64,000 nt of DNA. It comes from a virus. This document shows, one piece after another, positions 30,221 through 63,610 of the stretch; the stretch's first letter is position 1; every line of letters begins with the position of its first letter. A model generated the notes under the pieces. The model ran no database searches and was not told the DNA's origin. It saw only the letters and a program-made list of their open reading frames with translations. Where the stretch lies: the IMG/VR virus record IMGVR_UViG_3300045988_174813; one strand, given 5' to 3'. The position numbers and the translations under genes are program-made.

Positions 30221-30281
30221 TGGTTCAGGCAACGCCCTTTTAAGACGTCTGATGCTGGTTCGATTCCAGTCTAGCCCACCA
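30206..30281 (+). tRNA. tRNA-Lys (UUU)
   Basis: Acceptor GGGCTAG/CTAGCCC, anticodon loop CTTTTAA, T arm GCTGG-TTCGATT-CCAGT, encoded CCA. Confidence 0.85.
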
Positions 30282-30318
30282 ACCCGAAAGGGTATTCTAC
30301 TAGTAGGAGTGAAAATTT

Positions 30319-30684: not shown

Positions 30685-30687
30685 ACT

Positions 30688-30711
30688 TTGGGAGGGTTTA
30701 TGCCCTCCCAA
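30688..30711 (+). terminator. stem-loop after the holin-like gene
   Basis: TTGGGAGGG-6 nt-CCCTCCCAA; no clear U tract. Confidence 0.35.
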
Positions 30712-30782
30712 TCTATAAATTTATCAAGCCCGCGCCTTCTAAGTGGACTTGTAATTAGAACTTCTATGTAGAAAGGTGGTTT

Positions 30783-31520: not shown

Positions 31521-31545
31521 AAATTCAGAAAAATAATGGTATAAT
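31517..31545 (+). promoter_or_regulatory. sigma-A type promoter
   Basis: TTGAAA-17-TATAAT. Confidence 0.65.
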
Positions 31546-31577
31546 ATATATAGAAAATGAAAGTGAGGGAAAACTAA

Positions 31578-31826
31578 ATGATTACAACTAACGATTGGAA
31601 TGTAGTTCTCAAAGAGCTTGGCTATAAGGAACCAGTATCTAAAGTAAAGCGTAAGCAGAAGCCTACTAAGTGTCGTCTATGTGGCGCCAATATGGTTCCC
31701 CATCCTGGCACCAATGTCTTTACTTGCTCTGGCACTATTGAGAAGGAAATCGAGAAGGATGGTAAGACTGTCAAGATTAGTGAGTCTTGTCCAGGCGTGT
31801 TTCTGCGCAATCGTATTATCAAGTAA
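31578..31826 (+). CDS. zinc-ribbon protein
   Basis: CRLCG..CSG..C; 82 aa. Confidence 0.55.
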   Translation: MITTNDWNVVLKELGYKEPVSKVKRKQKPTKCRLCGANMVPHPGTNVFTCSGTIEKEIEKDGKTVKISESCPGVFLRNRIIK

Positions 31827-31864
31827 ATAACCCCATAAAATCTAACCGAAAGGGAGGACTAGTT

Positions 31865-32089
31865 ATGGAAAGAATCATTGTAGTAGTTGGCTATTTCCCT
31901 AAGTCTAGAGTGTATATGGCTAAAATTGTGCGTGGAGACATATGGGCGCAAGCTTGGAAAGACCAGTGGACTGCTGATGGTGGAACTGTAGCAGTAGGAA
32001 AAATGTTTTATACCAGTGGTAAGCGCGAAGAAGCCTATAAGACTCTCAAGACTAAACTCATAAAAGAAATAAAGGAGAAGAATAACTAA
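31865..32089 (+). CDS. hypothetical protein
   Basis: GGAGG RBS before ATG 31865. Confidence 0.55.
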   Translation: MERIIVVVGYFPKSRVYMAKIVRGDIWAQAWKDQWTADGGTVAVGKMFYTSGKREEAYKTLKTKLIKEIKEKNN

Positions 32090-32325
32090 TGGAAGATGGT
32101 TGGATAGATGTAAACTATTCCTTCTCTACTGTAGGCTATGCGCGTGATACATTACTTGCGCGATTACGGCAGATGGTTGTGAATTATGAACGGTTGGAAC
32201 TTGTGGATAGAAGTCATTGGAGTGATTGGCGCGAGACAATTCTTTTGCGCGGGTCTATTCGTGATGGAGAATATGGCGAGTTTCAGAAGTTTATGGAAGA
32301 AATGATGCGTGAGTATGATGTGTGA
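32089..32325 (+). CDS. hypothetical protein
   Basis: 78-aa ORF, TAATG coupling. Confidence 0.55.
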   Translation: MEDGWIDVNYSFSTVGYARDTLLARLRQMVVNYERLELVDRSHWSDWRETILLRGSIRDGEYGEFQKFMEEMMREYDV

Positions 32326-32328
32326 AAT

Positions 32329-32357
32329 TTGAATTTTTGAAAAATTTAGTGTATAAT
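32329..32357 (+). promoter_or_regulatory. sigma-A type promoter (variant leader TGTAAGGTTGAGAGAG)
   Basis: TTGAAT-17-TATAAT. Confidence 0.65.
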
Positions 32358-32385
32358 ATATATGTAAGGTTGAGAGAGAAATAAT

Positions 32386-32646
32386 TTCTTGAAACTTTAT
32401 ACGCACATATCGGGGCGGAGTATGCGACGACACGTGCAACGAAGCAAATAAACTCGGCAGTGCCTGTATATGTTGCAACCGTTGGAGGACGAGATAAACC
32501 TCCGGTAATTTGTAGTTTTCCATTCCTCAAGAGAAAGCTTCCGGAAATACGAGAAGGGAATGTATGGCGCGCGCGAACCAGCATTCAAAATCCCCACGAA
32601 GAGGGCATTTGTGGATTGGGTGTTTTGCCACAAGATGCACTAAAAT
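32386..32646 (+). ncRNA. promoter-driven ORF-free structured transcript, unknown class
   Basis: No RBS-preceded ORF; helices GGAGG/CCTCC, CATTCC/GGAATG, CCAC/GTGG; ends at the next promoter. Confidence 0.4.
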
Positions 32647-32647
32647 T

Positions 32648-32676
32648 TTGACTTTCTGGAAATTTTAGTGTATAAT
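32648..32676 (+). promoter_or_regulatory. sigma-A type promoter driving tRNA-Leu
   Basis: TTGACT-17-TATAAT; near-identical copy at 34550. Confidence 0.7.
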
Positions 32677-32696
32677 AAATATAGAAAGTGAGATAT

Positions 32697-32781
32697 GGGG
32701 AATTGGTGTAATAGGTAGACACAAGGCACTTAAAATGCCTGGGCGAGAGCCATACCAGTTCGAGTCTGGTATTCCCTACCA
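32697..32781 (+). tRNA. tRNA-Leu (UAA)
   Basis: Anticodon arm AGGCA-CTTAAAA-TGCCT, long variable arm, T arm ACCAG-TTCGAGT-CTGGT, A73, CCA. Confidence 0.85.
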
Positions 32782-32867
32782 TACAAAAGGATAGGATGAT
32801 GTTGGCCTATCATCTGATAAGAGATGCCCCTCTTCCTTTTGTTTATTTTAGGGCAAGGGGTAAATTT

Positions 32868-33503
32868 ATGGCGTATATTTATAAGATTGTAAATAGAGTA
32901 AATGGAAAACTCTATATTGGTAAAACTTAGTTCTCTATTGAAAGGCGATTTTAGGAGCATATTAGAGCCTCTAAAAAAGAAAATTGTGCTAATCGTCCTC
33001 TATATAAAGCTATGAAAAAATACGGGATTGACAATTTTTATGTTGAACTTATTGAGGAAACTAATAATCCAGAAGAGCGTGAGCAGTTTTGGATAAGATA
33101 TTATAATAGTTATGTTGGTTTTTCTAACTGTCAAGGTTATAATGCTACTTTAGGTGGTGACGGGAAAGCTTATATTGATAGAGAACCGATAATTGAACTC
33201 TTTTAGTAGGGTCTTACATAGAGAGAAATTTCTTCTTTGCTGGGTTATGATGCTCATACTATAAGAGTAGCTTTGAATGAAGCTGGATTTTCCCATAAAG
33301 AAATTGAAAATAATGCTCTTTCTAAATAGAAAAAGGGCGTTCAGATGTTAGATAAAATAACTTCTGAATAGATAGCTCTTTTCTCTTCTATAATGGAAGC
33401 AGAAAGGTATCTCCAAAAACCGCAAAGTCGTCGGCATATAGCTGAGGTTTGTAATGGAAAACGAAAATCAGCTTATGGGTATAAATGGCAATGGAATAAC
33501 TAA
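32868..33503 (+). CDS. GIY-YIG homing endonuclease (7 sense TAG)
   Basis: YIYKIVNRVNGKLYIGKT..RF.EH..N..LY.A..KYG..NF..E..E....REQFWI..Y; C-terminal ..NGKRKSAYGYKW; ORF 33012 shares the frame. Confidence 0.75.
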
Positions 33504-33538
33504 AATAAATTTATGGATGTATAACATCCATAATATAT

Positions 33539-33610
33539 GGCGGGAAGCGATGGTCGCAGATTGGTCTCATACACCAATTATTGAGTGTTCGAATCACTCT
33601 CCCGCACCCA
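33539..33610 (+). tRNA. atypical tRNA, anticodon CAU (Met/Ile2-type)
   Basis: Anticodon arm TTGGT-CTCATAC-ACCAA, T arm GAGTG-TTCGAAT-CACTC, CCA; D loop only 3 nt, G1/A72 mismatch. Confidence 0.5.
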
Positions 33611-34436
33611 TAGACGTGCCCTAATGCGTCTCTAAATAATCAGGGTAGTGCGAGAGAGGATGGATTTACGGTAAACTACCACTGGCGTCACAGACCCAAT
33701 AGGAGGGCGACGATATGTGGCTTGTCATTTGGAATCGCACTATAATACAAAGAAAACGAAAGTAACCGTGTATTTCTTATTCTGCGCGCCCTGCATTCAA
33801 AGCGCTCAATGAAGCAGGAGCTTAGTAGACAAAAGAAAAGGGTTCGTTTAGCTTATAACCCTAAAAGCTAAACTTTGTATAGAGGCGAGAGGATGAACCT
33901 CTATGGGGTTTTTGGTAACGGTCTCCTAACGAACACGTAACGGGTCGGAAGTCCCAAAATCTTCCCGCAGGCACGGCGATAGTTATCCCGCTTATGTGAA
34001 GGGTTCGTAGCGTAAAATGTACCCTATCCAGCAAGAAGCTACGCTGGGAGTGAGCTTCCGCTGGCAGTCGTGAAAAGCTCGCGTCTTAGGCTGTGTCAAT
34101 GCCCTAAGCGTTAGGTCGATTACGAGAAATTGACTAGGTTTTAGTGCTTTTGTGAAATATAAAGCTCCTGCGCGGGCGAGTGCAGAATATTGTAAAGGGA
34201 GAAGTACAATCCCATCGTTCAGTTTGGTCGTTGCTGTATAAAACGACCACCAAATGGCGCGCTTCCAGTTTCTAAATGCGTAGGTTGTCTTTACCTCAGA
34301 AATTATAGGTTGCATAGAAAGTAATTAGAAGATGTAAAATAATAATAAGTCCTATAAGAGTAAGGAAAAAGATAATGGTTAGATATGCAGGGCGTAGAGT
34401 TGATGGTGTGCTCGCGCGGAGGATGAAACCATCCAT
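33611..34436 (+). ncRNA. ~825-nt ORF-free structured spacer between two tRNAs (large ncRNA candidate)
   Basis: Looks GC-richer than flanks by eye; >=8 local helices, e.g. CTTAGG/CCTAAG 34085-34108, GGTCGTT/AACGACC 34226-34248. Confidence 0.45.
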
Positions 34437-34511
34437 GGAGTATTCGTATAGTGGCTAATATTCCAGTCTTCCAAACTGGCGCGGTGGGTTCAATTCCCAC
34501 ATACTCCTCCA
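34437..34511 (+). tRNA. tRNA-Gly (UCC)
   Basis: Acceptor GGAGTAT/ATACTCC, loop CTTCCAA, T arm GTGGG-TTCAATT-CCCAC, CCA. Confidence 0.85.
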
Positions 34512-34549
34512 TGGTTCGGTAGTTTATCCTTCAAAAGCTACCTAGAATT

Positions 34550-34578
34550 TTGACTTTCTGGAAATTTTAGTGTATAAT
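34550..34578 (+). promoter_or_regulatory. sigma-A type promoter driving the suppressor tRNA
   Basis: TTGACT-17-TATAAT; leader ATAGAAAGTGG runs straight into the tRNA. Confidence 0.7.
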
Positions 34579-34597
34579 AAATATAGAAAGTGGATGA

Positions 34598-34673
34598 AGG
34601 CCTGTGGTGTAACGGTAAGCATAGGAGGCTCTAACCCTCTTGATACTCGTTCGAGTCGAAGTCGGGCCTGCCA
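34598..34673 (+). tRNA. suppressor tRNA, anticodon CUA (reads UAG), Gln-like
   Basis: Acceptor AGGCCTG/CGGGCCT, anticodon arm GGAGG-CTCTAAC-CCTCT (CTA at 34631-34633), G73, CCA; one bulge in the T stem. Confidence 0.8.
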
Positions 34674-34803
34674 TACTAAAGGCGCACACAGCAATTCCTA
34701 ATAGGGTAAAAATTTGTTCTGCACAAACGAATTAGTTGGTTCAAATCCAACAAAAAAAACTTGCGTCTTGAGTTTATTTCAAAAGAAAGAAAGGAAAACA
34801 TTT

Positions 34804-35010
34804 ATGTCTACAAATAAAGGTTATATGAAAGCCTATAACTTCATTGCAAAGCCTGGTTCTAAATCCTCCATCGCACGTCAGGCGGAACTTTCCGCGCGAC
34901 CCGTTATTGTTCATTCTTGTAGTGTGTGCGGCGCGCAGGGAACATTGTATCGTACAAATAAGGGCGAACATCCTGCGGTGTATGTTTGTAAGGAGCATCG
35001 GGCGAAGTAA
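34804..35010 (+). CDS. small Cys-containing protein
   Basis: GAAAGGAAA RBS, ATG 34804; CSVCG..C..H. Confidence 0.5.
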   Translation: MSTNKGYMKAYNFIAKPGSKSSIARQAELSARPVIVHSCSVCGAQGTLYRTNKGEHPAVYVCKEHRAK

Positions 35011-35026
35011 GTTTCGCCCTATATAT

Positions 35027-35101
35027 TGTGCTTTAGCTCAGTGGTAAGAGCCGGCGACTTATAATCGTCAGACGATAGTTCAACTCTATCAAGCACAACC
35101 A
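35027..35101 (+). tRNA. tRNA-Ile (UAU)
   Basis: Acceptor TGTGCTT/AAGCACA, D arm GCTC-AGTGGTAA-GAGC, loop CTTATAA, T arm GATAG-TTCAACT-CTATC, CCA. Confidence 0.8.
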
Positions 35102-35514
35102 TTTGGGAGGAAGGATGTAATCCGTAATCTACCTCCACTAATATGGCGTAAGTAGCTTGGACTTTGCTCCGCCTATAATAGAGCCTAACTCAAAGCATAG
35201 TGTTATAGAGCGTGAGAGCCAACGTCTATGTTGGCTCCCGCAATTGAACAGCTAATTATTCATTTTTCCCTACCTCCTTCTTTGTTCTCTTTTGGTCGTT
35301 GAGAGAATAAATAAAACGACTACCAATAGACTTTCACACCTCTGGCGGGCTGCAAGTGGCAAATGAAAGTCTTTCCGAAAGTAGGAAAATCCTTCTACTT
35401 GCGCGGAAACCATTTCGGAATTGACCACTGCGATGGTATCTTCGTTTTAGAGGTTACAGCCTAGTTAGCCATTATGGGAAGTCTGGTCAATGGAACATAA
35501 TGGTTAGCGTACTT
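35102..35514 (+). ncRNA. ~410-nt ORF-free structured spacer
   Basis: Helices GAGCCAAC/GTTGGCTC 35215-35236, GACTTTCA/TGAAAGTC 35329-35371, and 12 bp TTAGCCATTATG/CATAATGGTTAG 35464-35508. Confidence 0.4.
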
Positions 35515-35591
35515 GGTGCCATCGACTAATTGGCTAGGTCACGACCCTTTCACGGTCGTAATGTTGGGTTCAAGTCCCACTGGCATCTCCA
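35515..35591 (+). tRNA. tRNA-Glu (UUC)
   Basis: Acceptor GGTGCCA/TGGCATC, anticodon arm CGACC-CTTTCAC-GGTCG, T loop TTCAAGT, CCA. Confidence 0.75.
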
Positions 35592-35624
35592 TATATTACC
35601 GATATATTAGAAAGGAAGAGACAA

Positions 35625-36398
35625 ATGGACATCACTAATTTTGATACCTATAATGCGCGAATGTCATCCTCTATTGAGGATAAAATGTGGTTTTGGGATA
35701 AAGTCAAACATACTACAGATTCTATTGTAGATTATGGATGCGCCGATGCGTCTCTTCTTTTGCGTATCAATGAAGAGCATCCTTATCAGACTCTTATTGG
35801 CTATGATGCTTCTGATGATATGCTAGCCCGCGCGAAAGAAAAAACTAAAAATACACCTATTTGCTTTGTAGAAAGTATATTTGAGCCGGAAATGAAAGAG
35901 ACTTGTCTTGTTCTTTCTTCTGTAATTCATGAAATCTATTCTTATCAGTTGAAAGAAGATGCAGATTTTGAACTGGGCATGATTTTTGACCTTGGCGCAA
36001 AATATATTGCAATTCGTGATATGGGTATACGAGATATATGCCGTAATATAGAAACACCAATCGATGTTCTCAAAAACATTTATGCACGCGATGATGTTGC
36101 TAAGATTGCTTCTTTTGAAAAACGTCAAGGCCGTATTTCTAATTGGGCAAATTGTATTCACTATCTTTTGAAGGCGCCATATGACGAGAATTGGGCGCGA
36201 GAAGTGGAAGAAAATTATGTACCGTTTACTATGAATGAAGTGCTCGCGCAATATAATGTGGATAGTCCTGTCAAATATGATGTGGTGTTTTTTGAAGCAT
36301 ATACCTTACCCTATGTGCGCGAACGCATTATTCGAGATTATAATATTAGCTTGTATACGCCCACTCACTATAAACTGCTTCTTGAACGTCATTTCTAA
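35625..36398 (+). CDS. class I SAM-dependent methyltransferase
   Basis: IVDYGCADAS (motif I), LIGYDASD, LVLSSVIHE; embedded in the tRNA island. Confidence 0.6.
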   Translation: MDITNFDTYNARMSSSIEDKMWFWDKVKHTTDSIVDYGCADASLLLRINEEHPYQTLIGYDASDDMLARAKEKTKNTPICFVESIFEPEMKETCLVLSSVIHEIYSYQLKEDADFELGMIFDLGAKYIAIRDMGIRDICRNIETPIDVLKNIYARDDVAKIASFEKRQGRISNWANCIHYLLKAPYDENWAREVEENYVPFTMNEVLAQYNVDSPVKYDVVFFEAYTLPYVRERIIRDYNISLYTPTHYKLLLERHF

Positions 36399-36405
36399 TC
36401 TATAT

Positions 36406-36489
36406 GCCACCGTGATGGAAAGTATACATACAAGCCTTAGAAGCTTGCGCCCGCGAGGGATTGCGAGGTCGAACTCGCCGGTGGCACCA
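36406..36489 (+). tRNA. tRNA-Leu (UAG)
   Basis: Acceptor GCCACCG/CGGTGGC, anticodon arm CAAGC-CTTAGAA-GCTTG, long variable arm, A73, CCA; T loop looks 6 nt. Confidence 0.7.
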
Positions 36490-36496
36490 GTAAAAT

Positions 36497-36525
36497 TTGA
36501 ATTTTCTGAAAATTTAGTGTATAAT
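36497..36525 (+). promoter_or_regulatory. sigma-A type promoter
   Basis: TTGAAT-17-TATAAT. Confidence 0.65.
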
Positions 36526-36559
36526 ATATACATAAGATGAAGAAAGGAAAGAAAATCTA

Positions 36560-36775
36560 ATGGCTTATTTTGATTGTATGGGAACTTGTGGGGTTAGTCC
36601 TTTCAAGTGTAAGAATCACTATTGTAGTGGTAATCCTCATTACACCCCGCCGAAGCGGAAAGTGAAACCCAAGCAGGGTTCTGGCAATCATCCTGTTCGT
36701 TCTATTCGTGCGAAAATTCGTAAGGATGATGGACGCGGATATAATTTCTTTAGAGATATGGCGCGAGACGAATAA
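36560..36775 (+). CDS. small basic Cys-rich protein
   Basis: GAAAGGAAAG RBS; 71 aa, K/R-rich. Confidence 0.5.
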   Translation: MAYFDCMGTCGVSPFKCKNHYCSGNPHYTPPKRKVKPKQGSGNHPVRSIRAKIRKDDGRGYNFFRDMARDE

Positions 36776-36778
36776 GTT

Positions 36779-36855
36779 TAGCGTATAGTGGAAGGCTCTT
36801 ACAGCGATAGATTTATAATTCTATTGTATTATTGGTTCGACTCCAATTGCGCAAT
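36779..36855 (+). tRNA. tRNA-like gene with 7-bp anticodon stem and 8-nt loop (TTTATAAT)
   Basis: Acceptor TAGCGTA/TGCGCAA (1 mismatch), T arm ATTGG-TTCGACT-CCAAT; non-canonical anticodon arm. Confidence 0.35.
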
Positions 36856-37239
36856 TGCGTATAGCTTAGTTGGTAAAGCAAATAAAAATTATTAGAGCCT
36901 TGGATAGTTTACCTTAGATAAGTTTGGATTTTAGTTAGTTTTGAGTAAAGACCCTTACAGCAAACATTCTAATATTTTTGGACTTATAATCCCGTGGTCG
37001 GTGGTTCGAGTCCACCTCAGACAGCCTGCGTGGTATGTCAGGTAGCTCAGTTGGCTAGAGCACGAAAATTATTTTGTGGGTCTTGTTTTATGTTTTGTTG
37101 GATTGGTACTCCTTAGTAAATAAAGGCGCGGGACTGCAATCTTTGAAAAAAGAATGTGATATAATAGATACTGTCGAGCGACCTCGGTAGGCTTGACCCC
37201 AAGTTCGGCTGGATTATCCAGCTCGCGCCTTGTATTTAT
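36855..37239 (+). other. cluster of unpaired tRNA half-molecules plus a structured element
   Basis: 5' half 36855-36880, 3' half ~36978-37024 (loop CTTATAA, T arm GGTGG-TTCGAGT-CCACC), 5' half 37036-37062; helix AAGGCGCG/CGCGCCTT 37124-37230. Confidence 0.4.
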
Positions 37240-37315
37240 GGATGGTTATCTCAACTGGAAGAGAGCTCGCCTTACACGCGAGAGGTTAGAAGTTCAAGTC
37301 TTCTACTATCCACCA
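37240..37315 (+). tRNA. tRNA-Val (UAC)
   Basis: Acceptor GGATGGT/ACTATCC, anticodon arm CTCGC-CTTACAC-GCGAG, T arm AGAAG-TTCAAGT-CTTCT, CCA. Confidence 0.85.
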
Positions 37316-37602
37316 TAGATTACCACTTGTTAGATTGTTATCCTCCTGAGACGTCAGCTAGTTCTGGCAATCAATAAGTGAATAATCTACGTCCAATATC
37401 TCACTCACGACGTAAAACTCTTGTGAGGTCGCAAAGGAGAGATGCGTGAGCGGGTCTCACTCCAGACTGCGTTAGGTCGAAAAGACGTCTAGCTCAACCT
37501 TTTTCTTTGTCTGTTCTTTTAGTGGAAGTATCGAAAAATGAACGGCAGAAACGTTTCGAGGTTCGAGTGGTTTCCTTGGGAGGACCGAAAACCACTCACT
37601 AT
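37316..37602 (+). ncRNA. ~290-nt ORF-free structured spacer
   Basis: Helices GTGAG/CTCAC ~37446-37460 and GTGGTTT/AAACCAC ~37567-37594; GACGTC-AGCT boxes at 37351 and 37484. Confidence 0.35.
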
Positions 37603-37679
37603 GCTTCCATACCCCAATAGGTAGAGGGGAATGGCTCAAACCCATTGTAGTCTCAGTTCGAATCTGAGTGGAAGTACCA
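37603..37679 (+). tRNA. tRNA with anticodon CAA but a short (class I) variable arm
   Basis: Acceptor GCTTCCA/TGGAAGT, anticodon arm AATGG-CTCAAAC-CCATT, 5-nt variable region, T arm CTCAG-TTCGAAT-CTGAG, A73, CCA. Confidence 0.65.
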
Positions 37680-37765
37680 TTGGCAGTTTACCACCTGCCG
37701 TCGATTTTTTTCTTTAGCATATGATAAGTTATGACGTTCTTATCTGAAATAAAAACGTCATCTAT

Positions 37766-37840
37766 GGGAGATTAGCCTAGTGGTTCAGGCAGTCGGCTGT
37801 TAACCGACCTACAGGTGTTCAATTCACTTATTTCCCGCCA
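37766..37840 (+). tRNA. tRNA-Asn (GUU)
   Basis: Acceptor GGGAGAT/ATTTCCC, anticodon arm GTCGG-CTGTTAA-CCGAC, T loop TTCAATT, G73, CCA. Confidence 0.85.
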
Positions 37841-37935
37841 GAACGGTTGTTGGGCCAACCGTTTCGTTTCCTCTTTTTCTTTGTAGGGTTTGGCAGTTTC
37901 CTTGGGGTCTCACTTCTAAAAACTGCCTTTTATAT

Positions 37936-38009
37936 TGAGGATGTGGTGTAATGGTAGCATTCCTGTTTTGGGTACAGGCGGAGCCGTTCAAATCGGACAT
38001 CTTCAACCA
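37936..38009 (+). tRNA. tRNA-Pro (UGG)
   Basis: Anticodon arm CCTGT-TTTGGGT-ACAGG, acceptor TGAGGAT/ATCTTCA, CCA; weak T stem. Confidence 0.65.
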
Positions 38010-38035
38010 TATCAAAAAAATTTAGGAGGTATATT

Positions 38036-38308
38036 ATGCCTAAGGTACTCTTTGAATGTAATGATTGTGGCAAGTTCTATGGCAGTGAAGCGGAAGCTCT
38101 TGCTTGTGAAAAAGCTCATGCTAGTGAACGCACGCGTAAGGAAAAGCTTCAGGCTGAAAAGAAAGCTCGTTTGGAAGCTATCCGTGCACAGTATGAAAAG
38201 CTTCTTGAAGATATTCGCAAGTTCAATGAGGACTATGCGGAACCTGCAACAATGAGTTATACTGGTGCACTTAGTAAGGTGTTGGATAGTTTTTTCAAGT
38301 TGTTCTAA
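38036..38308 (+). CDS. zinc-ribbon / coiled-coil protein
   Basis: AGGAGG RBS; CNDCG..C start, K/E-rich helix. Confidence 0.55.
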   Translation: MPKVLFECNDCGKFYGSEAEALACEKAHASERTRKEKLQAEKKARLEAIRAQYEKLLEDIRKFNEDYAEPATMSYTGALSKVLDSFFKLF

Positions 38309-38403
38309 GTGAATCATTGAATAAGATATAAAGACGCATAACAGCAATACATTATATAAATATTTTTTGAAAATATATTATGGAAATGCGTCTTGGTTTA
38401 TAT

Positions 38404-38478
38404 AGGAGCGTCGCCAAGTGATTAAGGCACGGGACTTTGACTCCCGCATCGTGCGTTTGAATCGCACCGCTTCTGCCA
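38404..38478 (+). tRNA. tRNA-Gln (UUG)
   Basis: Acceptor AGGAGCG/CGCTTCT, D arm GCCA-AGTGATTA-AGGC, anticodon arm CGGGA-CTTTGAC-TCCCG, G73, CCA. Confidence 0.85.
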
Positions 38479-38558
38479 GATAGATTGAATAAATCGTCTA
38501 ATTCAAGTAGGTTATAAGATAGTCTGCTAATTTCCGTTCAGCAGGAGCGCAGAAAGAT

Positions 38559-38586
38559 AGATATAAGACCTAATATATCTTTTGTT
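38559..38586 (+). terminator. stem-loop plus T run
   Basis: AGATATA-8 nt-TATATCT, then TTTTG. Confidence 0.45.
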
Positions 38587-38601
38587 CAATCAACCTAAAA
38601 T

Positions 38602-38630
38602 TTGAATAATTTCAAAATATATTGTATAAT
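38602..38630 (+). promoter_or_regulatory. sigma-A type promoter
   Basis: TTGAAT-17-TATAAT. Confidence 0.65.
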
Positions 38631-38665
38631 ATATACATAAAGTAAAGAAGAAAGGAAACACTAAA

Positions 38666-39037
38666 ATGAAAACCTATCCTATTGAGAAGTACAAGTTCAT
38701 TATCCTTCCTGAGCAGAAGAAAGTCATTGCGCTTACTTCGTATGCTGGTAAAACTGTAAAGGGTGTTGCCGTGTGCAGTGAACATGATGAATTTGATATT
38801 GAAACGGGCAAACGGCTTGCTGCCGCGCGAGCCAATGTAAAGGTAGCAATGAAGCGTAAGGCGCGTGCCGAGAAGAAGCTGGCATACTTTGATAAAATTA
38901 TTGAAGATGTCGAGCGTGAGTATCATGAGCTTGAAGGTTATGCTTATGATGCTGGCGAACGATGGGAAAACGCGATTGATGAACTGGCTGGTGTGCTGAA
39001 TGATGTTGGCGCGCTTGAGCCGATGGATATTGAGTAA
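38666..39037 (+). CDS. hypothetical protein
   Basis: GAAAGGAAA RBS; 123 aa. Confidence 0.55.
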   Translation: MKTYPIEKYKFIILPEQKKVIALTSYAGKTVKGVAVCSEHDEFDIETGKRLAAARANVKVAMKRKARAEKKLAYFDKIIEDVEREYHELEGYAYDAGERWENAIDELAGVLNDVGALEPMDIE

Positions 39038-39048
39038 GGAGTAAATTT

Positions 39049-39645
39049 ATGGGTCGGTGCGAAAGTAAGTATTGTGAAAAATGTGGGTGTTATGTGCCTG
39101 AGGGAGAGACAGCGTGTGTTTCTTGTGGGTATGATCCTACTCCAAAGCCTGTGCGCCGACCTGATCCTCTTGCAGATATGTATGCGCGAGACCCTTGGGC
39201 GATAGCGCAGTATCATACTCCTTTACCCATGGATTACGCACAACTGGTGAATGTGGCACCGAAGGTAAGACAGATGACTCTGAATGAAGTGCTTGATGAG
39301 TTGAAAATGGAAGATAAGTATGAGCGGTCCGCGCGAGCAATGAGTCAGATTTTTTGTTCAACTGCTCAAGCCTCTGAAGCTTTTACTCAACTTGCACGAG
39401 ACCATCAAGATGCGCAGAAACAGGTAATATTGCATGAATTTCTTTGGGCAAAAGGCGGAAAGGGCAATTCTTCAATAGTCACAACTCCAAATTGTATCAA
39501 AAATGAGATGGATAGAAATTGTTTGGAACTTTGTGAATATTGTTCTTTGGAACAAGAGAGAAAAGATATATATACTCACAGGATTATTAGAACATACAAA
39601 TGTTTGAAACATCCTCATGTGTCTTATATAAGTGTAATCAACTAA
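39049..39645 (+). CDS. zinc-ribbon protein
   Basis: CEKCG..CVSCG N-terminus; 198 aa. Confidence 0.55.
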   Translation: MGRCESKYCEKCGCYVPEGETACVSCGYDPTPKPVRRPDPLADMYARDPWAIAQYHTPLPMDYAQLVNVAPKVRQMTLNEVLDELKMEDKYERSARAMSQIFCSTAQASEAFTQLARDHQDAQKQVILHEFLWAKGGKGNSSIVTTPNCIKNEMDRNCLELCEYCSLEQERKDIYTHRIIRTYKCLKHPHVSYISVIN

Positions 39646-39647
39646 AT

Positions 39648-39741
39648 GGGCGTCTAATCCTAATTGGCTAAGGAAATAGTCTTGAAAACTATTAGTAGCA
39701 TCGTAAGGTGTGTCTCGGTTCAAGTCCGAGGGCGCTCGCCA
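39648..39741 (+). tRNA. tRNA-Ser (UGA)
   Basis: Anticodon arm ATAGT-CTTGAAA-ACTAT, long variable arm, T arm CTCGG-TTCAAGT-CCGAG, G73, CCA. Confidence 0.8.
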
Positions 39742-39743
39742 TG

Positions 39744-39856
39744 AATAGAATAGTAGGGTTAGCCTGTTCCGTGGTGATACGCGGGTCGCACCTTTGAGAA
39801 CGCCTTGTATACGGGTAAAACAGAGCACAAGCCGGCAATGTTCTCTCTATTCTATT
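39744..39856 (+). ncRNA. ~115-nt structured spacer closed by a 10-bp helix
   Basis: AATAGAATAG (39744) pairs with CTATTCTATT (39847). Confidence 0.35.
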
Positions 39857-39862
39857 TTATAT

Positions 39863-39950
39863 GCGGAGTAAATCCAGAAGGTCTGGAGCCTACCTGCTAA
39901 GTAGTGCGTAGTCGTAAGGCTATATGAATCGTTTTCATTGCTCCGCGCCA
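39863..39950 (+). tRNA. atypical tRNA-Ser (GCU)-like
   Basis: Acceptor GCGGAGT/GCTCCGC, loop CTGCTAA, long variable region, CCA; T loop lacks TTC and the D arm is aberrant. Confidence 0.45.
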
Positions 39951-39953
39951 TAT

Positions 39954-39996
39954 GCCAGAGATTGGTGTTGAGTGGGTTCGAATCCCACCGCTGGCA
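39954..39996 (+). other. acceptor/T-arm minihelix (tRNA lacking D and anticodon arms)
   Basis: GCCAGAG-11 nt-GTGGG-TTCGAAT-CCCAC-CGCTGGC-A; no CCA. Confidence 0.4.
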
Positions 39997-40073
39997 TCGA
40001 GGGCTTTTGCAATAAGCCCAAGAGATTGCAATCATGTATATTGGGAGGAGTTGAGACCCTACCCAATATATAT

Positions 40074-40148
40074 GCCTTCGTAGTATAATGGCTATTACTT
40101 CGGATTTGTAACCCGAAGATAGGTGTTCAATTCACCTCGAAGGCTCCA
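40074..40148 (+). tRNA. tRNA-Thr (UGU)
   Basis: Acceptor GCCTTCG/CGAAGGC, loop TTTGTAA, T arm AGGTG-TTCAATT-CACCT, CCA. Confidence 0.8.
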
Positions 40149-40648
40149 TTACCGCACGGATGGCCATGGTTCCAATATGACGGTATTACTTCTATATTGA
40201 AGGTTTGGTGCGGTATATAAATGAATATGGGTCTAAATTCAAATGGTAGAGCCTTCATTTGAATAACAAAGTGTGATAAATGTGAACAGATAGAGCGCTA
40301 AGCGCACGGGTCTTCTAGGGGCCTTCTCTATCATCTATGCTCTAATAGTTTAGTAGGAAAAATACCGGCATCGTTGCCGGAGAGAGCGGTTCGAATCCGT
40401 GAAGGGGCCGTGGTTCTTCCACCACGAAGAGAAGCGGGTGGTTTCCACCGTTAGGAAACTAAGATACCGAGTGACACGTGGTATCTATGGGAGGATACGT
40501 TGACTTCCACTGTTGGTCTCCTCAACAGTAATGTAGATGGAGTGACATCCGGAAAAGAGCGGAATAGCGCATTCGACGTTGTGATGTGCGCCATAGGTAT
40601 ATGGCCGGAAAAAAGATACCCATCCCGTCTGCGAGGACGGGAGCCTAT
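40149..40648 (+). ncRNA. ~500-nt ORF-free structured spacer (large ncRNA candidate)
   Basis: Helices TACCGCAC/GTGCGGTA 40151-40215, GATACC/GGTATC 40463-40485, CTGTTG/CAACAG, CCCGTC/GACGGG 40623-40640; holds a tRNA 5'-half-like copy at 40339. Confidence 0.4.
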
Positions 40649-40729
40649 CCTCTAATAGCAAAGTGGTAATGCATACCATCCCAAGTTTACGTAAGAAGGT
40701 AACCATTGGTTCGAGTCCAATTTAGAGGA
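40649..40729 (+). tRNA. tRNA-like gene with an enlarged anticodon region
   Basis: Perfect acceptor CCTCTAA/TTAGAGG, D arm GCA-AAGTGGTAA-TGC, T arm ATTGG-TTCGAGT-CCAAT; TACC..GGTA encloses 20 nt; no CCA. Confidence 0.4.
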
Positions 40730-40730
40730 C

Positions 40731-57636: not shown

Positions 57637-57670
57637 GGAGAGCAAGAGATTGCTCTCCTTTTTTGTTTTT
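57637..57670 (+). terminator. rho-independent terminator closing the plus-strand arm
   Basis: GGAGAGCA-6 nt-TGCTCTCC, then TTTTTTGTTTTTT. Confidence 0.8.
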
Positions 57671-58084
57671 TAGAAAGAGATACTTGCGCGCCCTCCATAA
57701 AAATGTATCATCACTACATTTAGTGCCTCGCGCGAAGCCTATATAGAACTTCTATTGAGTAAATCTATGGAGCCCGCGCGAAGCAATCAAATTTCCATCA
57801 AGCAAACCCAGGAGCCCGCGCAGTTTCAATTCTACTACTAAGTCTACTTCTAGACTAAATCAAAATTTGAATATTTTTATTATGGGATTTCTACCTTTTC
57901 AATATAAAATAGATAGAAGATAGATTAGAAAAAAATTTTTATATATCTTGTAGGGAAAAATTTAGAGAGAATAGTAAAGAAAATCTACTTTATAAATGTA
58001 ATAGGGAAATTTATTTAGTAAATACATTTATAAATACATTATATATATAGTAGTAGTAGAAGTCTCCTACGGAGCCTTTTTTGG

Positions 58085-58160
58085 AAAACAACGCCCCCTT
58101 GAGGGGGGTGAACCTCGACCGCGCGCAGTCGCGGGTGAGGTTCATCGGGGGGTGCACACA
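58085..58160. other. nested GC-rich hairpins in an AT-rich repeat zone
   Basis: GCCCCC-ttga-GGGGGG; GAACCTC[GACCGCG-cgcagt-CGCGGGT]GAGGTTC. Confidence 0.4.
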
Positions 58161-58169
58161 ATTAGATAA

Positions 58170-58640
58170 ATAATTCTAAATGTAATTATAATGTATGTCT
58201 ATCGCGCGAGGCGCACAGGGACATCAAAGTAGAGTATATAATTTATAGTGTAATTTTGAGTGTAGTGGGCGCCAAATGGATGACTAAGTGGATTACTAAG
58301 TGAGCTACTAAATTATAAGTGTAATTCTAATGTAAGTTATAAATGTAATTATAAGTGTAAATAAAATGTGGGCGTAGGTAGTACGCGTGGTGAAGTTTAT
58401 AGAGTAATTTATAAATGTAATTATAATGTATGTTATGAATGTGAGTAAAATGAAGGGGCGCGCGAAGTAGGGGGCAAACACCGGTGCCTTGAATGGTAAG
58501 GCGTAGGTTATAGGTTATAGGTTATAAATTATAAGTTATAAGTTATAAATGTAATTTATAAATGTAATTCTAAATGTATGTTGTAAATGTATGTTGTAAA
58601 TGTAAGTAAAATGTGTGTTCTAAATGTAATAATGCCCCAA
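58170..58640. repeat. array of short (A/G)TGTAA(T/G)T motifs interrupted by GC islands
   Basis: e.g. TAAATGTAATTATAATGTATGT at 58176 and 58412; GTTATAGGTTATAGGTTATAAATTATAAGTTATAAGTTATAAATGTAA at 58506. Confidence 0.7.
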
Positions 58641-58707
58641 AAATTTTTCTTTCCGCCCCATATAGGGGGATGCTTCGGAGGCTCTTTGGGGGGTAGGGAT
58701 TGAGGGA

Positions 58708-58736
58708 TATATATCCCAAATTTTTTCCAAAGTCAA
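58708..58736 (-). promoter_or_regulatory. possible minus-strand promoter reading into the repeat zone
   Basis: TTGACT-17-TATATA. Confidence 0.4.
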
Positions 58737-58810
58737 ATTTTTTTTACACAATAAATTTCTTCCAAAATTTAGATTTTTTATATAAAAAATAGCAAAACGT
58801 ATACTAAAAT

Positions 58811-58839
58811 TTGACAAGTTCAAAAATGTATGGTATAAT
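58811..58839 (+). promoter_or_regulatory. sigma-A type promoter with no ORF behind it
   Basis: TTGACA-17-TATAAT with TG extension. Confidence 0.6.
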
Positions 58840-58845
58840 AAAAGG

Positions 58846-58912
58846 GGAAGGATATGTGTCCCGCGCGAGAAAAAAAATAAAAGTAAAACCTCGGAGTGAT
58901 CCGAGGTTTAAA
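58846..58912 (+). ncRNA. candidate ~65-nt small RNA
   Basis: Starts after the promoter; ends at AACCTCGG-agtgat-CCGAGGTT plus TAAATTT; only an 8-codon ORF. Confidence 0.35.
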
Positions 58913-59014
58913 TTTCTCCCATAAAAGGGTGGGGTTTTTCGGTTTTTCTGGCTTTTACAGGCGTTGTCAAATTTTATGTTATGTCAAATTTTTTCTAGAC
59001 AAATAAAAAAATTC

Positions 59015-59052
59015 CAAAATAAAAATAGCAGAGTAAAATACTCTGCTATTTT
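59015..59052. terminator. terminator after the initiator-like gene
   Basis: ATAGCAGAGT-aaaat-ACTCTGCTAT flanked by A/T runs. Confidence 0.65.
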
Positions 59053-59071
59053 CTATATATAAAGTTGCAAC

Positions 59072-59557
59072 TTACTCTTCAACAATAGGAAGTTGGTTCC
59101 ATTTTTCCAAAAATTCGTGTTCAGGAATCTCTTTAGTAAGTAAGCCCTTGAGTTCATTATAAGTTACATTGCGCGGGCCGTTCTTAGTCTGTACTGTACG
59201 GACTTCTGGCTTTAGAAGAATATCTTCTGTGGTAAGCGGAGGGTCGTGAGGCGTTTCATAGAAATTGAGCTTCCCATCTTCCTCAATTATATACCCACAG
59301 TTTACTAGGTCTGCTGGCGCGCGCCGGGCAGCATCAACTGATAATCCATATACATTTGAAAAATCTCGTGGAGAATAATCTTTCTCATAGTTATTCTGAT
59401 TAGATGCAAGGTATAAGTATAGTTTGAATCCAGAGGGTGTAAGTAACCTCGCGGCAGTAGCTAATGCTTGACAGTCAATAGCAAGGTATTGCTTTTTTTC
59501 TGAGAGCGGATTAGAACGGTGGATAATGATAGTCTTTTGATTTTGATAGTGAGCCAT
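59072..59557 (-). CDS. winged-helix replication-initiator/organizer-like protein
   Basis: AAGGAG RBS; ..LTPSGFKLYLYLASNQ..Y.YSPRDFSNVYGLSVDAARRAPADLVNCGYI..; flanked by iteron arrays. Confidence 0.4.
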   Translation of the reverse strand: MAHYQNQKTIIIHRSNPLSEKKQYLAIDCQALATAARLLTPSGFKLYLYLASNQNNYEKDYSPRDFSNVYGLSVDAARRAPADLVNCGYIIEEDGKLNFYETPHDPPLTTEDILLKPEVRTVQTKNGPRNVTYNELKGLLTKEIPEHEFLEKWNQLPIVEE

Positions 59558-59611
59558 AGTGAGTACTCCTTTTTTGATAAAATAAAATGATAAACTACTG
59601 ATGATAGTGAG

Positions 59612-59665
59612 CCAGCTTTTGGCGAGCGCGCCTTAGCAAAGCGAGCCAGAAAAAGCTGGCTCATA
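59612..59665. repeat. 12-bp inverted repeat
   Basis: GAGCCAGCTTTT..AAAAGCTGGCTC. Confidence 0.6.
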
Positions 59666-59689
59666 TTTAGCTTTTTGCGCATATTTCTT

Positions 59690-59995
59690 TATATTACTTA
59701 TGTAAATTTTACATAAGGATGTAGGAAAATTTACATAAGGATGTAGGAAAATTTACATATACTTTGCTTATTTTTCGTTTTTTTATGGTCGCTATGCGCG
59801 GCTCCTATAGCTAAATTTACATAAGGGTTAGGAAAATTTACATATACTTTGGTATACCTTATGTAAGTTTTACATAAGGTTATGGCTAATTTTACATATA
59901 CCTATAGCTAGTTTTGCGTATACCTTATGTAAAATTTGCGTATACCTATAGCTAAATTTACATATACCTTATGTAAATTTTACATATACCCTCTT
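59690..59995. repeat. iteron field, core AAATTTACATA(A/T)
   Basis: >=12 copies in both orientations; 22-bp unit GGAAAATTTACATAAGGATGTA x2.5; palindromes CCTTATGTAAATTTTACATAAGG. Confidence 0.75.
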
Positions 59996-60008
59996 CTATT
60001 ATATATAT

Positions 60009-60037
60009 ATTATATCATAATTTTTAGAAAATTTCAA
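60009..60037 (-). promoter_or_regulatory. sigma-A type promoter facing the iterons and initiator gene
   Basis: TTGAAA-17-TATAAT. Confidence 0.6.
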
Positions 60038-60093
60038 ATTCTTCTCAGCTTTCGGGGATTACTCGTGCGCTCGCTCGATAGTATGCTACTTCT

Positions 60094-60122
60094 ATTATAT
60101 CATAAAATCTCCAAAAAATCAA
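60094..60122 (-). promoter_or_regulatory. sigma-A type promoter (tandem)
   Basis: TTGATT-17-TATAAT. Confidence 0.55.
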
Positions 60123-60388
60123 ATTTTCTGGCGCAGCTCCCCAGCTCTCAAAATTTGCCTATACTCCCCGCCCAGCTTTCCAGCTTCCAGCTTTCTTGCG
60201 CCCAAAATTTGACAGGCCTATCCAATGTTCTCCCTATGTGGTGCGCGCATCATAAAATTTGACACGCAACAAAATTTGCGTTGGTGGTTTACGATAATAA
60301 TGTTATGTAAACTTTAGTTGTGTGATGAATTAGTGATTTAGTGTGTTAGTAGTTTACTATGCTAAAGAAAATTTGACAAAAATGAAAA

Positions 60389-60409
60389 TCTAACCTAAGA
60401 TAGGTTAGA
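60389..60409. promoter_or_regulatory. 21-bp palindrome TCTAACCTA-N3-TAGGTTAGA (copy 1 of 7)
   Basis: Perfect 9+3+9; 9 nt from a weak TTGTCA-17-TAAACT element. Confidence 0.6.
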
Positions 60410-60411
60410 TT

Positions 60412-60446
60412 TTGGGGTAAAAGAAAAGAGGGAAAATTAGATTTCC
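60412..60446 (-). terminator. rho-independent terminator of the right-arm operon
   Basis: Minus strand GAGGGGGAAAT-ctaa-TTTTCCCTC, then TTTTCTTTT. Confidence 0.7.
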
Positions 60447-60619
60447 CCCTCAATAGAATAATTTTCGTATTTATAATGTAAATCAATCTGGTATTCTTTT
60501 TCACACTGCGGGCAATAATAGATACAACATTCTGTATGATAATCATCACCATATAAATCATCATACGTATCATCAAGAGCAAGAACCGCACCACAATTCG
60601 GGCATCTAATCTCTTCCAT
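60437..60619 (-). CDS. zinc-ribbon protein
   Basis: CPNCG..CPQCE; 60 aa. Confidence 0.55.
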   Translation of the reverse strand: MEEIRCPNCGAVLALDDTYDDLYGDDYHTECCIYYCPQCEKEYQIDLHYKYENYSIEGEI

Positions 60620-61041: not shown

Positions 61042-61899
61042 TCAAATATCGGCGCGTCCTACGATGCGGAACGGGAAAGCAATAATTCCGTAGGAAAATT
61101 TTCCTTTCGTGCGCTTGTGGATAAGGGAAAAAATTTCGGTTTCTATCTCGGCATCATTCAATGCCGTGTGCGCTTCTTCAAAATCAGTTTCCCCAGTGAT
61201 AAACCGGAAAGACGTTTCCGCGCTTGTCTTGTAGTATTTCCCACTTTCGGTAATCCAACCGTTAGCTTTGCACGCTTCGCGGTAATCGTCGCTATCAAGA
61301 ATATGCTCACAAGCCAAACCCCAGAGGTCAAACAGAGGATACGACCGACCACGGAAACGGAACACTTCCGGCTCATATTCTTTCTTGGAGGTATAGCGCG
61401 TCTTGCTTGCAATGTTGTCGCAGATGCGGTTCTGGAGGGCTTCCCAGTTGTGGAAGTCTGCGCTATACAGTTTGGAAATATAAAGCTCGGTAAACGGGAT
61501 TGCTTTCTTGAAGTCAAAGTTGGCGTTATAAGCTCCGACGCCTACCACGTCGGCGAGGTCTGCTTCAAGTTTTGCGGACGCTTCGCGCCACGTTGCAAGC
61601 TCAATCGTTCCCGCTTCCAGAGCTTCAAGGTAAATCGGACGCTTAGACGCATAGTAAGCAGTATTGAAAATCGCAGGAACGGAGAAAATCTCGGTAATGA
61701 GATAGTTACGGCGGCGATAAACGTTACCCTTGGCGTCGCAAATCGTCCAGCCCAAATCATAAATAAGCGGCTTTGCGATAGCTACGGATTTTTTCGCTTC
61801 CGCGGACAGCTCCGACGCATAGGGAAGCGTTGCGGTTTCGCAATCGAGGACGCAATAGTATTTGCGGCGGCGGTCAAGTTTCTTCTCGGCAATAGACAT
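61042..61899 (-). CDS. DEDD-family 3'-5' exonuclease (DnaQ-like)
   Basis: AAGGAG RBS, ATG 61899; VLDCETA (ExoI), AYNANFDF (ExoII), HTALNDAEIE (ExoIII). Confidence 0.8.
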   Translation of the reverse strand: MSIAEKKLDRRRKYYCVLDCETATLPYASELSAEAKKSVAIAKPLIYDLGWTICDAKGNVYRRRNYLITEIFSVPAIFNTAYYASKRPIYLEALEAGTIELATWREASAKLEADLADVVGVGAYNANFDFKKAIPFTELYISKLYSADFHNWEALQNRICDNIASKTRYTSKKEYEPEVFRFRGRSYPLFDLWGLACEHILDSDDYREACKANGWITESGKYYKTSAETSFRFITGETDFEEAHTALNDAEIETEIFSLIHKRTKGKFSYGIIAFPFRIVGRADI

Positions 61900-61954
61900 A
61901 ATATATACTCCTTTTCTGTCGGGGCGTAACTTCTTTTCCCTCCTGACATTATAT

Positions 61955-61983
61955 ATATTACCACACCCTATACAGGAAGTCAA
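61955..61983 (-). promoter_or_regulatory. right-arm promoter
   Basis: TTGACT-17-TAATAT. Confidence 0.55.
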
Positions 61984-63172: not shown

Positions 63173-63610
63173 TCAACCGAGGGCAGACAAAATTTCCATA
63201 ATCTGCGACGGGTCAAAACTGTATTCTCCCCAGTTTTCGCGGTTCTTCTCTTCATCATCGAAAAGAATATCTTCCGCGCCGAGCTTGAAAGTTTCTTTCG
63301 GTGTGCCATACTCTACGACGTGGATAGCGTCCCACTTGACAGAGTGGAGATGCTTGTCAAGCCATTTCTTTTTGGCTTCGCGCACGGCTTCAAGATAGGC
63401 TTTCGAGCTTGTCTTGCTTCCCCACGAGATAACGCCGATAGTGTAGCCTGCGCGGTGGAGCTTGTTGAGCTTGCGCGCGAGCGTGCGCATATCACCGAGC
63501 GGTCGCGCCTGGGCATAGGGTCTTGGATTTTCTGCGCGAAGCATAGAAAGCCAATTTTCCACGGCGTAAAGGTCTGAAATTGTGCCGTCCATATCGAACC
63601 AAATCGTCAT
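63173..63610 (-). CDS. HAD-superfamily phosphatase, 5'(3')-deoxyribonucleotidase-like
   Basis: FDMDGT (DxDxT), ..ISWGSK.., ILFDDEEKN. Confidence 0.6.
   Translation of the reverse strand: MTIWFDMDGTISDLYAVENWLSMLRAENPRPYAQARPLGDMRTLARKLNKLHRAGYTIGVISWGSKTSSKAYLEAVREAKKKWLDKHLHSVKWDAIHVVEYGTPKETFKLGAEDILFDDEEKNRENWGEYSFDPSQIMEILSALG

Follow-up and report, generated by a model that had tools for sequence, protein, structure and literature searches.

The window analysed here is a 64,000-nt stretch of the IMG/VR virus record IMGVR_UViG_3300045988_174813, a portion of a large uncultured tRNA-rich phage that carries 16 tRNA genes as well as genes for a DNA ligase, an endolysin, PhoH, and nucleotide metabolism, and for which no close relative was found among sequenced phages. 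Genes lie on the plus strand up to ~57.6 kb and on the minus strand from 64 kb down to 59.07 kb, and the 2.8 kb stretch between the two arms (57650-60430) is mostly non-coding, holding a single gene at 59557..59072 (-). This gene has an ATG start with a ribosome-binding site (RBS), AAGGAG, 8 nt upstream, and encodes a protein of 161 aa; with two strong predicted promoters, a leader, and a terminator of its own it makes up a self-contained, insulated monocistronic unit, hereafter the cassette. The leader is ~445 nt long and spans a field of short repeats. Our best reading of the cassette, which we hold tentatively, is an origin-binding initiator that is accompanied by its iterons and regulates its own synthesis. 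The features, from right to left in the window, are as follows.

60385..60451, minus strand: terminators of the upstream minus-strand operon, which form the right boundary of the cassette
60094..60122, minus strand: predicted promoter P2, TTGATT-17-TGaTATAAT (consensus scan 10/12, TG extended -10)
60009..60037, minus strand: predicted promoter P1, TTGAAA-17-TGaTATAAT (consensus scan 11/12, TG extended -10)
59807..59989, no strand: iteron cluster II, ~10 copies of AAATTTACATAW including degenerate GCGTAT variants, with three palindromic sites
59763..59806, no strand: T-rich run CTTATTTTTCGTTTTTTTATGG (73% A+T) and then GC-rich block TCGCTATGCGCGGCTCC, separating clusters II and I and kept in relatives
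59696..59762, no strand: iteron cluster I, one palindrome (59696-59718) and two 22-bp direct repeats ATGTAGGAAAATTTACATAWRS
59681..59700, minus strand: conserved element AGTAATATAAAGAAATAT, directly after the last palindrome
59608..59663, minus strand: GC-rich hairpin set in the leader, in which a 7-bp hairpin GAGCCAG/CTGGCTC is nested inside outer arms of 13 nt
59072..59557, minus strand: gene for the 161-aa winged-helix protein (open reading frame (ORF), RBS, profile, and AlphaFold2 (AF2) evidence)
59023..59053, minus strand: predicted intrinsic terminator that ends the cassette, with a U run after a 15-bp stem (RNA fold z = -3.5), kept in relatives

A preliminary description of this DNA had placed a winged-helix-type gene behind two tandem promoters that would have to transcribe through the iterons, and this layout is borne out: the ORF has its RBS, the AF2 model contains a winged helix, and the consensus scan recovers both promoters with the array lying between them and the gene. 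The P2 hexamers are kept in relatives, and the P2 region is a duplicate of the P1 region (73% identical). Transcription from P1 is predicted to start near 60002; the interval 59990-60045, which contains P1, has an A+T content of 84% and is also a candidate unwinding element. In the spacer, 59761-59790 has an A+T content of 73%. A search of 57-61 kb against Rfam returned nothing meaningful, and the gene has no paralogue elsewhere in the window.

The repeat array, the leader, and their conservation

At no more than one mismatch, AAATTTACATAW has 14 matches in the whole window, as compared to 2.78 +/- 1.68 expected, and none of 100 shuffles reaches 14. Twelve of the 14 fall within 59698-59987, i.e., inside 300 bp and in both orientations, which agrees with the at least 12 copies that had been counted from the sequence. 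Two to three further degenerate copies, including AGTTTTGCGTAT at 59910 and AAATTTGCGTAT at 59932, complete the register of the array. Outside it, there is one copy at 60303, just beyond the array, and a one-mismatch match at 63190, about what chance would give; since these are the only matches elsewhere, the array sites would act locally and not genome-wide. Tandem Repeats Finder reports a period of 22 at 59704-59759 (2.5 copies, 97% matches) and again at 59881-59990 (5.0 copies), and the forward copies of cluster II (59866, 59888, 59910, 59932, 59954, and 59976) are spaced exactly 22 bp apart, so the 22-bp direct repeats of the preliminary description stand. Because a 22-bp register amounts to two helical turns, the sites would face one side of the helix.

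Reverse copies placed 7 bp to the left of cluster II forward copies give rise to three palindromes. When compared to the 23-mer quoted in the preliminary description, palindromes lie at 59696-59718 (one mismatch), 59857-59879 (one), and 59967-59989 (three), with zero expected by chance; the three sites had been reported with starts at 59697, 59858, and 59966, which are corrected here to 59696, 59857, and 59967. A fourth, degenerate palindrome lies at ~59923-59943. Direct and inverted copies of one motif thus coexist in the array, with an inverted copy just downstream of a promoter: the palindrome at 59967-59989 begins 20 bp past the P1 -10 element and covers ~+13 to +35 of the predicted P1 start.

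Between the array and the gene, an inverted repeat previously given as 12 bp at 59612-59665 does exist, its extent being corrected to 13-nt arms at 59608-59620 and 59651-59663 on the minus strand. The arms are 100% complementary and, as single-stranded DNA, the element folds with z = -4.9. The inner 7-bp hairpin is also found at a homologous locus from a small phage, L004, where it reads GAGCACG/CGTGCTC and shows two compensatory pairs by direct reading. The long outer stem of the leader was considered as a covariation-supported RNA element and rejected, given that L004 breaks several of its pairs and keeps only the inner 7-bp hairpin.

L001, L004, and L005 contain exact copies of a 17-mer, AGTAATATAAAGAATAT, and near-exact copies are present in L003, in L006, and in the window clade, although the proteins of these loci have no more than 50-60% identity with that of the window or among themselves. 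The positions of the 17-mer (window 59681-59700 (-), L001 2271-2287, L004 3016-3032, L006 4878-4894) lie between the repeats and the GC-rich hairpins. No clear -35 element is seen ahead of it; it could be a promoter -10/start region, a site for a host factor, or a priming site.

Five contigs (L007-L011) are collinear with the window at ~75-88% identity, with an overall figure of ~87%, and served as the relatives for comparison. Their repeat fields are 96.7-97.3% identical to that of the window and their leaders with the hairpin 94-95%, and the gene is 89-90% identical at the nucleotide level (98-99% for the protein), such that the repeat field is better conserved at the nucleotide level than the gene itself. 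The promoter zone is 74-81% identical in full-length comparisons, the other non-coding flanks 73-88%, and the neighbouring genes 68-75%. From these segment identities, the array appears to be constrained at nearly every base and the gene to be under strong purifying selection. A further locus, L012 (5857-6363), has a 160-bp deletion between two array palindromes as well as an in-frame 41-residue deletion, with most of the winged helix gone; it could be a decaying copy of the module or an assembly artefact.

The 161-aa protein and its homologues in small phages

The AF2 model of the 161-aa protein (pLDDT, i.e., predicted local distance difference test, 80) consists of an N-terminal strand, one canonical winged helix (~residues 29-100, with helices at 41-51, 63-70, and 74-86 and the wing at 90-100), and a C-terminal domain made of a small beta-hairpin and two helices. 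In the PHROG database, the protein weakly matches PHROG 270 ('replication initiation protein', E = 2.2e-5) and PHROG 186 ('DnaD-like helicase loader', E = 9.9e-5); we would like to note that these function names are database annotations and not experimental results. An exhaustive profile search yields a family of 1,536 representative clusters at 50% identity, mostly of ~160 aa. When 66 diverse members were compared to the PHROG profiles, 63 weakly matched PHROG 270, 59 matched PHROG 186, and 18 matched the O-like PHROG 678, the best E-value being 1e-11, and longer relatives match the N-terminal 170-190 positions of replication-initiator profiles. Some members also pass the threshold of HTH_36 (P0109 with 38.7 bits and P0161 with 32.8 bits). 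For small plasmids, proteins of the HTH_36 type serve as Rep markers, and Stx phages have such proteins in their replication regions (PMC6209633, PMC8951638).

Searches at the level of BLAST (the region against GenBank phages, the protein against phages, and IMG/VR pattern scans) returned no relatives. The protein search against plasmids produced nothing but one uninformative partial match for P0161, and that of GTDB genomes one prophage-like match, 33% identical, in a Congzhengia metagenome-assembled genome. BFVD gave only matches of the 'HTH domain protein' type, among them a few weakly scoring ones with 'RepA-like' or 'replicon initiation' in their names. The C-terminal 50 residues have no family match in the curated profile libraries, NCBIfam included.

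In P0178, a GIY-YIG nuclease of 217 aa, the strand and winged-helix module makes up the C-terminal half, with 39% identity over residues 6-108. This protein, probably a homing-type endonuclease, is encoded at L014 6001-6654 and L015 4922-5575; L014 comes from a 57-kb pig-gut contig, and the longest contig listed is 142 kb.

Proteins 30-57% identical to that of the window occur in small phages, on contigs of 21-25 kb (L001, L016, L017, and L018) and on shorter pieces (L004 and L006), and the closest homologues outside the window clade (48-57% identical) are all in small phages, with none in large ones. In the small phages, the homologue gene always comes after a 0.5-1 kb non-coding region, which itself follows integrase or lysis genes, and it opens a run of just 3-6 small early genes that precedes TerS/TerL. 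Since none of these small early neighbours has a replication-type match in the parts read, the family would provide the sole replication-like protein there.

The homologous loci have an architecture in common: a strong promoter far upstream, repeats, the 17-nt element, GC-rich hairpins, and then the gene. For instance, in L006 the promoter TTGAAA-17-TGcTATAAT lies ~385 nt ahead of the ATG, and the leader contains repeats, the 17-mer, and hairpins. L004, whose protein is 56% identical, has TCTATG-N7-CATAGA palindromes, a diverged version of the CTTATG-N9-CATAAG of the window, and L001 and L006 have a footprinted 2 x 22-bp repeat in common within otherwise diverged DNA. A dense upstream array was rejected as a universal trait of the family, the distant loci being only modestly enriched. 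Readings of the region as TerS, cos/pac, or attP were likewise rejected, given that the small phages have a separate TerS 2-3 kb downstream and that the window clade is collinear across the region.

Two observations on these loci may be added. The gene directly downstream of the homologue (L016 2361-2594, L018 6130-6348, L017 10483-10884) encodes a small protein with the motif (V/I)DWHxxTxWRHxxEL...W...(L/I)P(I/Y), which has no Pfam match and no equivalent in the window, and which may be a conserved partner of the homologue. In L001 3002-6920, five of the six genes checked have in-frame TAG codons and all end in TAA, so this phage uses TAG recoding.

At the temperate loci, the homologue gene occupies the position of Cro, opposite the small leftward genes beside integrase. 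This position agrees with the main rival reading, a purely regulatory cassette, in which a winged-helix transcription factor (Cro-like or an early-gene regulator in the small phages) occupies an oversized array of operators within its own leader and, as a roadblock or autorepressor, keeps itself at a tight, buffered dose, with no part in replication initiation. We regard it as possible but on the unlikely side; an autoregulated transcription factor fits nearly as well as origin function does. The array lies wholly between the promoters and the gene, from ~+13 of P1; the protein is without an initiator-specific domain, the sequence and fold matches in the PDB are all winged-helix transcription regulators (MarR, GntR, CooA), and the conserved 17-mer and the leader hairpin resemble regulatory elements. 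However, 14 sites in strict 22-bp phase over 300 bp go far beyond known operator layouts, and no regulon beyond the cassette itself is found in the 64 kb, where the only outside matches are those at 60303 and 63190. Moreover, replication initiators are the only annotated remote relatives of the family among phage proteins, and a regulatory role would leave the small phages without a recognisable replication protein in the parts read.

Proposed origin function weighed against known systems

If the cassette is an initiator with its origin, as we prefer, it could work as follows. P2 and P1, both of the sigma-A type, would transcribe the 445-nt leader and then the winged-helix gene up to the terminator. 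The leader DNA would offer ~14-15 sites to the cassette's own protein, in two clusters held in a 22-bp register, where the palindromic sites probably take dimers and the remaining sites act as single direct repeats. The protein would be an origin-recognition protein of the replisome-organizer/lambda-O type that is reduced to its DNA-binding half; by coating the array it may bend the DNA or wrap it, and an A+T-rich stretch alongside would be destabilised, the candidates being the T-rich spacer at 59763-59785 and the 84% A+T region of P1. A host or phage helicase and primase would enter at the opened stretch. Protein bound from ~+13 of P1 would block the cassette's own transcription, and the position of the repeats, past the promoters and ahead of the gene, makes autoregulation plausible. 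Transcription through the array, the 17-mer, and the downstream hairpin may also help to open or prime the origin. We infer the binding of the protein to the array repeats, the firing of the origin, and all of the recruitment steps; what the analysis shows is the repeats with their phasing, excess, and extreme conservation, the promoter and terminator predictions, the winged-helix fold with its remote homology, and the architecture common to the homologous loci.

Several points weigh against this reading, the first set of which concerns the protein. The match of the 161-aa protein to HTH_36 (PF13730) scores 16.1 bits (E = 0.0097), under the 25-bit gathering threshold, NCBIfam returns nothing, and PDB sequence and Foldseek searches retrieve generic winged-helix regulators alone, none at E <= 0.001. 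The PHROG matches cover the winged helix only, i.e., positions 43-103 of 383 in PHROG 270 and 43-100 of 308 in PHROG 186, which points to the DNA-binding module of the initiator class, minus the part that recruits a helicase or loader. Indeed, a C-terminal domain for such recruitment is absent from the 161-aa protein, and from all of the 66 members compared. Of the replisome organizer, DnaD, and RepA families named in the preliminary description, none takes in the protein at a curated threshold, and what stands of that suggestion are the PHROG 270 and 186 matches for the winged-helix part. The fusion to a GIY-YIG nuclease further suggests that the winged-helix module is a general DNA-targeting unit.

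The second set concerns the locus. The DnaA box TTATCCACA has 20 matches at no more than one mismatch in the window, as compared to 20.0 expected. Of these, just one belongs to the cassette (59518-59526, one mismatch); it falls within the gene, and the array and the A+T-rich stretches have none. There is no helicase, loader, or primase gene adjoining the unit, as would follow from its being monocistronic; the neighbours tested are of unknown function except for a 5'-3' deoxyribonucleotidase. The upstream repeats of distant homologues number 4-7 copies, as compared to 3-5 in controls, which is a modest excess, and the upstream region of the temperate members is also where the operators of a switch would be expected. 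The losses in L012 may hint at a dispensable module. Finally, the cassette is placed at the junction of the two converging arms of transcription, where cumulative GC skew has its maximum, not its minimum. The skew switches at ~59 kb, just where gene orientation does, and it is uniform in the one-directional small phages; because skew tracks gene orientation, it is weak evidence either way, and we rejected it as a test of the origin.

Among known systems, lambda O and ori-lambda resemble the cassette in that an N-terminal winged helix acts on palindromic iterons spaced about two helical turns apart beside an A+T-rich stretch, with transcription across or near the origin, and the 18 family members that match PHROG 678 do so to an O-like family (the O-like families being 678 and 345). 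In contrast to the ~14 sites in the upstream leader here, ori-lambda has four iterons inside the O gene, and the C-terminal domain through which O recruits P-DnaB is lacking in the 161-aa protein, which is followed by no P-like gene. The replisome organizers and DnaD-like loaders of Firmicute phages (SPP1 G38P type; PHROG 270/186; HTH_36/DnaD_N) provide the best profile matches of the family and have in common with it an N-terminal strand, a winged-helix origin-binding module, and an early-gene position. They are, however, ~260-380 aa long as compared to 161 aa, they have a DnaD/DnaB_2-type C-terminal domain that is absent here, and no helicase or loader is adjacent to the cassette. The SPP1 origins lie within gene 38 and at a second site.

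The iteron plasmids (pPS10 RepA, F RepE, R6K pi, P1 RepA; Rep_3) likewise have tandem direct repeats in helical register, 17-22 bp long in this class of origin and 22 bp here. They also have an A+T-rich neighbour, for which the stretches named above are candidates, and inverted motif copies near the rep promoter for autorepression, to which the inverted copy at 59967-59989 may correspond. Nevertheless, their Reps have two winged helices and a monomer/dimer switch, whereas the window protein has one winged helix and no match to the Rep_3 profile at E <= 10. Plasmid origins contain DnaA boxes, of which there is no excess here, and the array of the cassette lies in a transcribed leader without overlapping a promoter. 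The preliminary description had seen in the locus the classic layout of an autoregulated Rep with an iteron origin; the repeats and their helical phasing are real and autoregulation is plausible, whereas RepA/Rep_3 membership of the protein is unsupported.

The layout also matches tubC/TubR and parC/ParR, in which a small winged-helix DNA-binding protein regulates its own synthesis from a phased repeat array, in two clusters, upstream of its own gene. By analogy, the cassette could be a centromere-like or maintenance module whose array is the partition or anchoring site for an adaptor of the TubR/ParR kind, serving a plasmid-like carrier state or the positioning of phage DNA. This we consider very unlikely: no NTPase (nucleoside triphosphatase) gene of the TubZ, ParM, or ParA type lies in or adjoins the terminator-bounded unit, none of the larger ORFs tested in the window has such a domain, no similarity to these systems was found in sequence or profile, and the remote homology of the family leads to initiators and not to TubR or ParR.

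That the nearest homologues outside the clade (48-57% identical) are all in small phages brings up yet another explanation, in which the large phage captured an initiator/iteron cassette from small co-resident phages to titrate or misdirect their replication or regulatory proteins, in the manner of origin-derived, phage-encoded resistance, or in which the cassette is the remnant of a mobile DNA-targeting element. Such a module for competition between phages would agree with an insulated stand-alone cassette between inverted AAATTTGACA boxes (described below), with the fusion of the winged-helix module to a homing-type GIY-YIG nuclease, and with L012, where decay of the module is seen to be possible. 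We find it more improbable still. The small-phage loci examined have repeats unlike those of the window, and cross-titration is therefore not evident; strong purifying selection on both protein and array across the clade argues for a core function, and a transposase or nuclease is absent.

On protein architecture, the cassette belongs to none of the lambda O, replisome organizer, and iteron-Rep systems, and it is best filed with a known kind of module, in which a DNA-binding protein of the winged-helix type comes with its cognate phased repeats and which is probably an initiator/iteron module. Its protein family is large, unannotated, and uncharacterised, the conserved leader elements are unexplained, and established principles are uncontradicted. 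A bolder proposal, which we regard as distinctly unlikely, would make the cassette a minimal portable phage replicon, found both in small temperate phages that recode TAG and in a large phage rich in tRNAs, for which a 160-aa protein with a single winged helix and without a domain to recruit a helicase suffices; initiation would depend on transcription from the strong promoters through protein-coated iterons, and AGTAATATAAAGAATAT with the hairpin would mark the RNA-to-DNA (R-loop/primer) transition.

Origins of replication have hardly ever been mapped in uncultured gut phages. If the initiator reading is true, this family, for which there is no curated model, would point to both origin and initiator across many small phages from metagenomes and at least one large-phage clade. 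It would then offer a handle for annotation and, for Clostridia-type hosts that are hard to transform, a candidate minimal replicon on which vectors could be built; natural co-variation would reveal the specificity between protein and iterons. Should the protein be no more than an autoregulator, its operator array would still be unusually large and unusually conserved.

Surroundings of the cassette

Six AAATTTGACA boxes, all of those in the 64 kb, flank the cassette at 58807 (+), 58965 (-), 58982 (-), 60205 (+), 60255 (+), and 60369 (+). The boxes are inverted between its two sides and invariant in relatives amid diverging surroundings, and a matching -10 element was seen at only one of them, 58807. 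They could be sites of another regulator, an unusual class of promoter, or variant binding sites. Nearby, at 58811-58945 (+), a perfect promoter (TTGACA-17-TGgTATAAT, 12/12) is followed by an 8-codon mini-ORF and two hairpins/terminators (58886-58909 and 58917-58934). This unit is kept in relatives, is without an Rfam match, and may be a small RNA of ~95 nt.

A second repeat field lies downstream of the gene at 57990-58630, with ~12 same-strand copies of TTATAAATGTAAT at a period of 12-13 bp; AAATGTA has 15 copies in the window, 12 of them within 57650-60430. Conservation of this field in relatives is far lower (73-79% and gap-rich in those in which most of it aligns), and its motif resembles the AAATGTATAAAAC repeats of L001.

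Among the tRNAs of the window, which lie in 30206-40730, there is a CTA-anticodon (amber suppressor) tRNA at 34598-34673, and two others (36779 and 40649) are oddly scored; TAG recoding in the window itself was unsupported by a crude read-through ORF test. Lastly, the operon that ends just upstream of the cassette includes a gene at 61042-61983 (-) for a 313-aa protein of the unknown-function PHROG 20187, in which motifs like those of DEDD-type exonucleases (DCETA..., NANFDF, HTALNDAE) can be recognised by direct reading, together with the gene for the 5'-3' deoxyribonucleotidase at 63173-63610.

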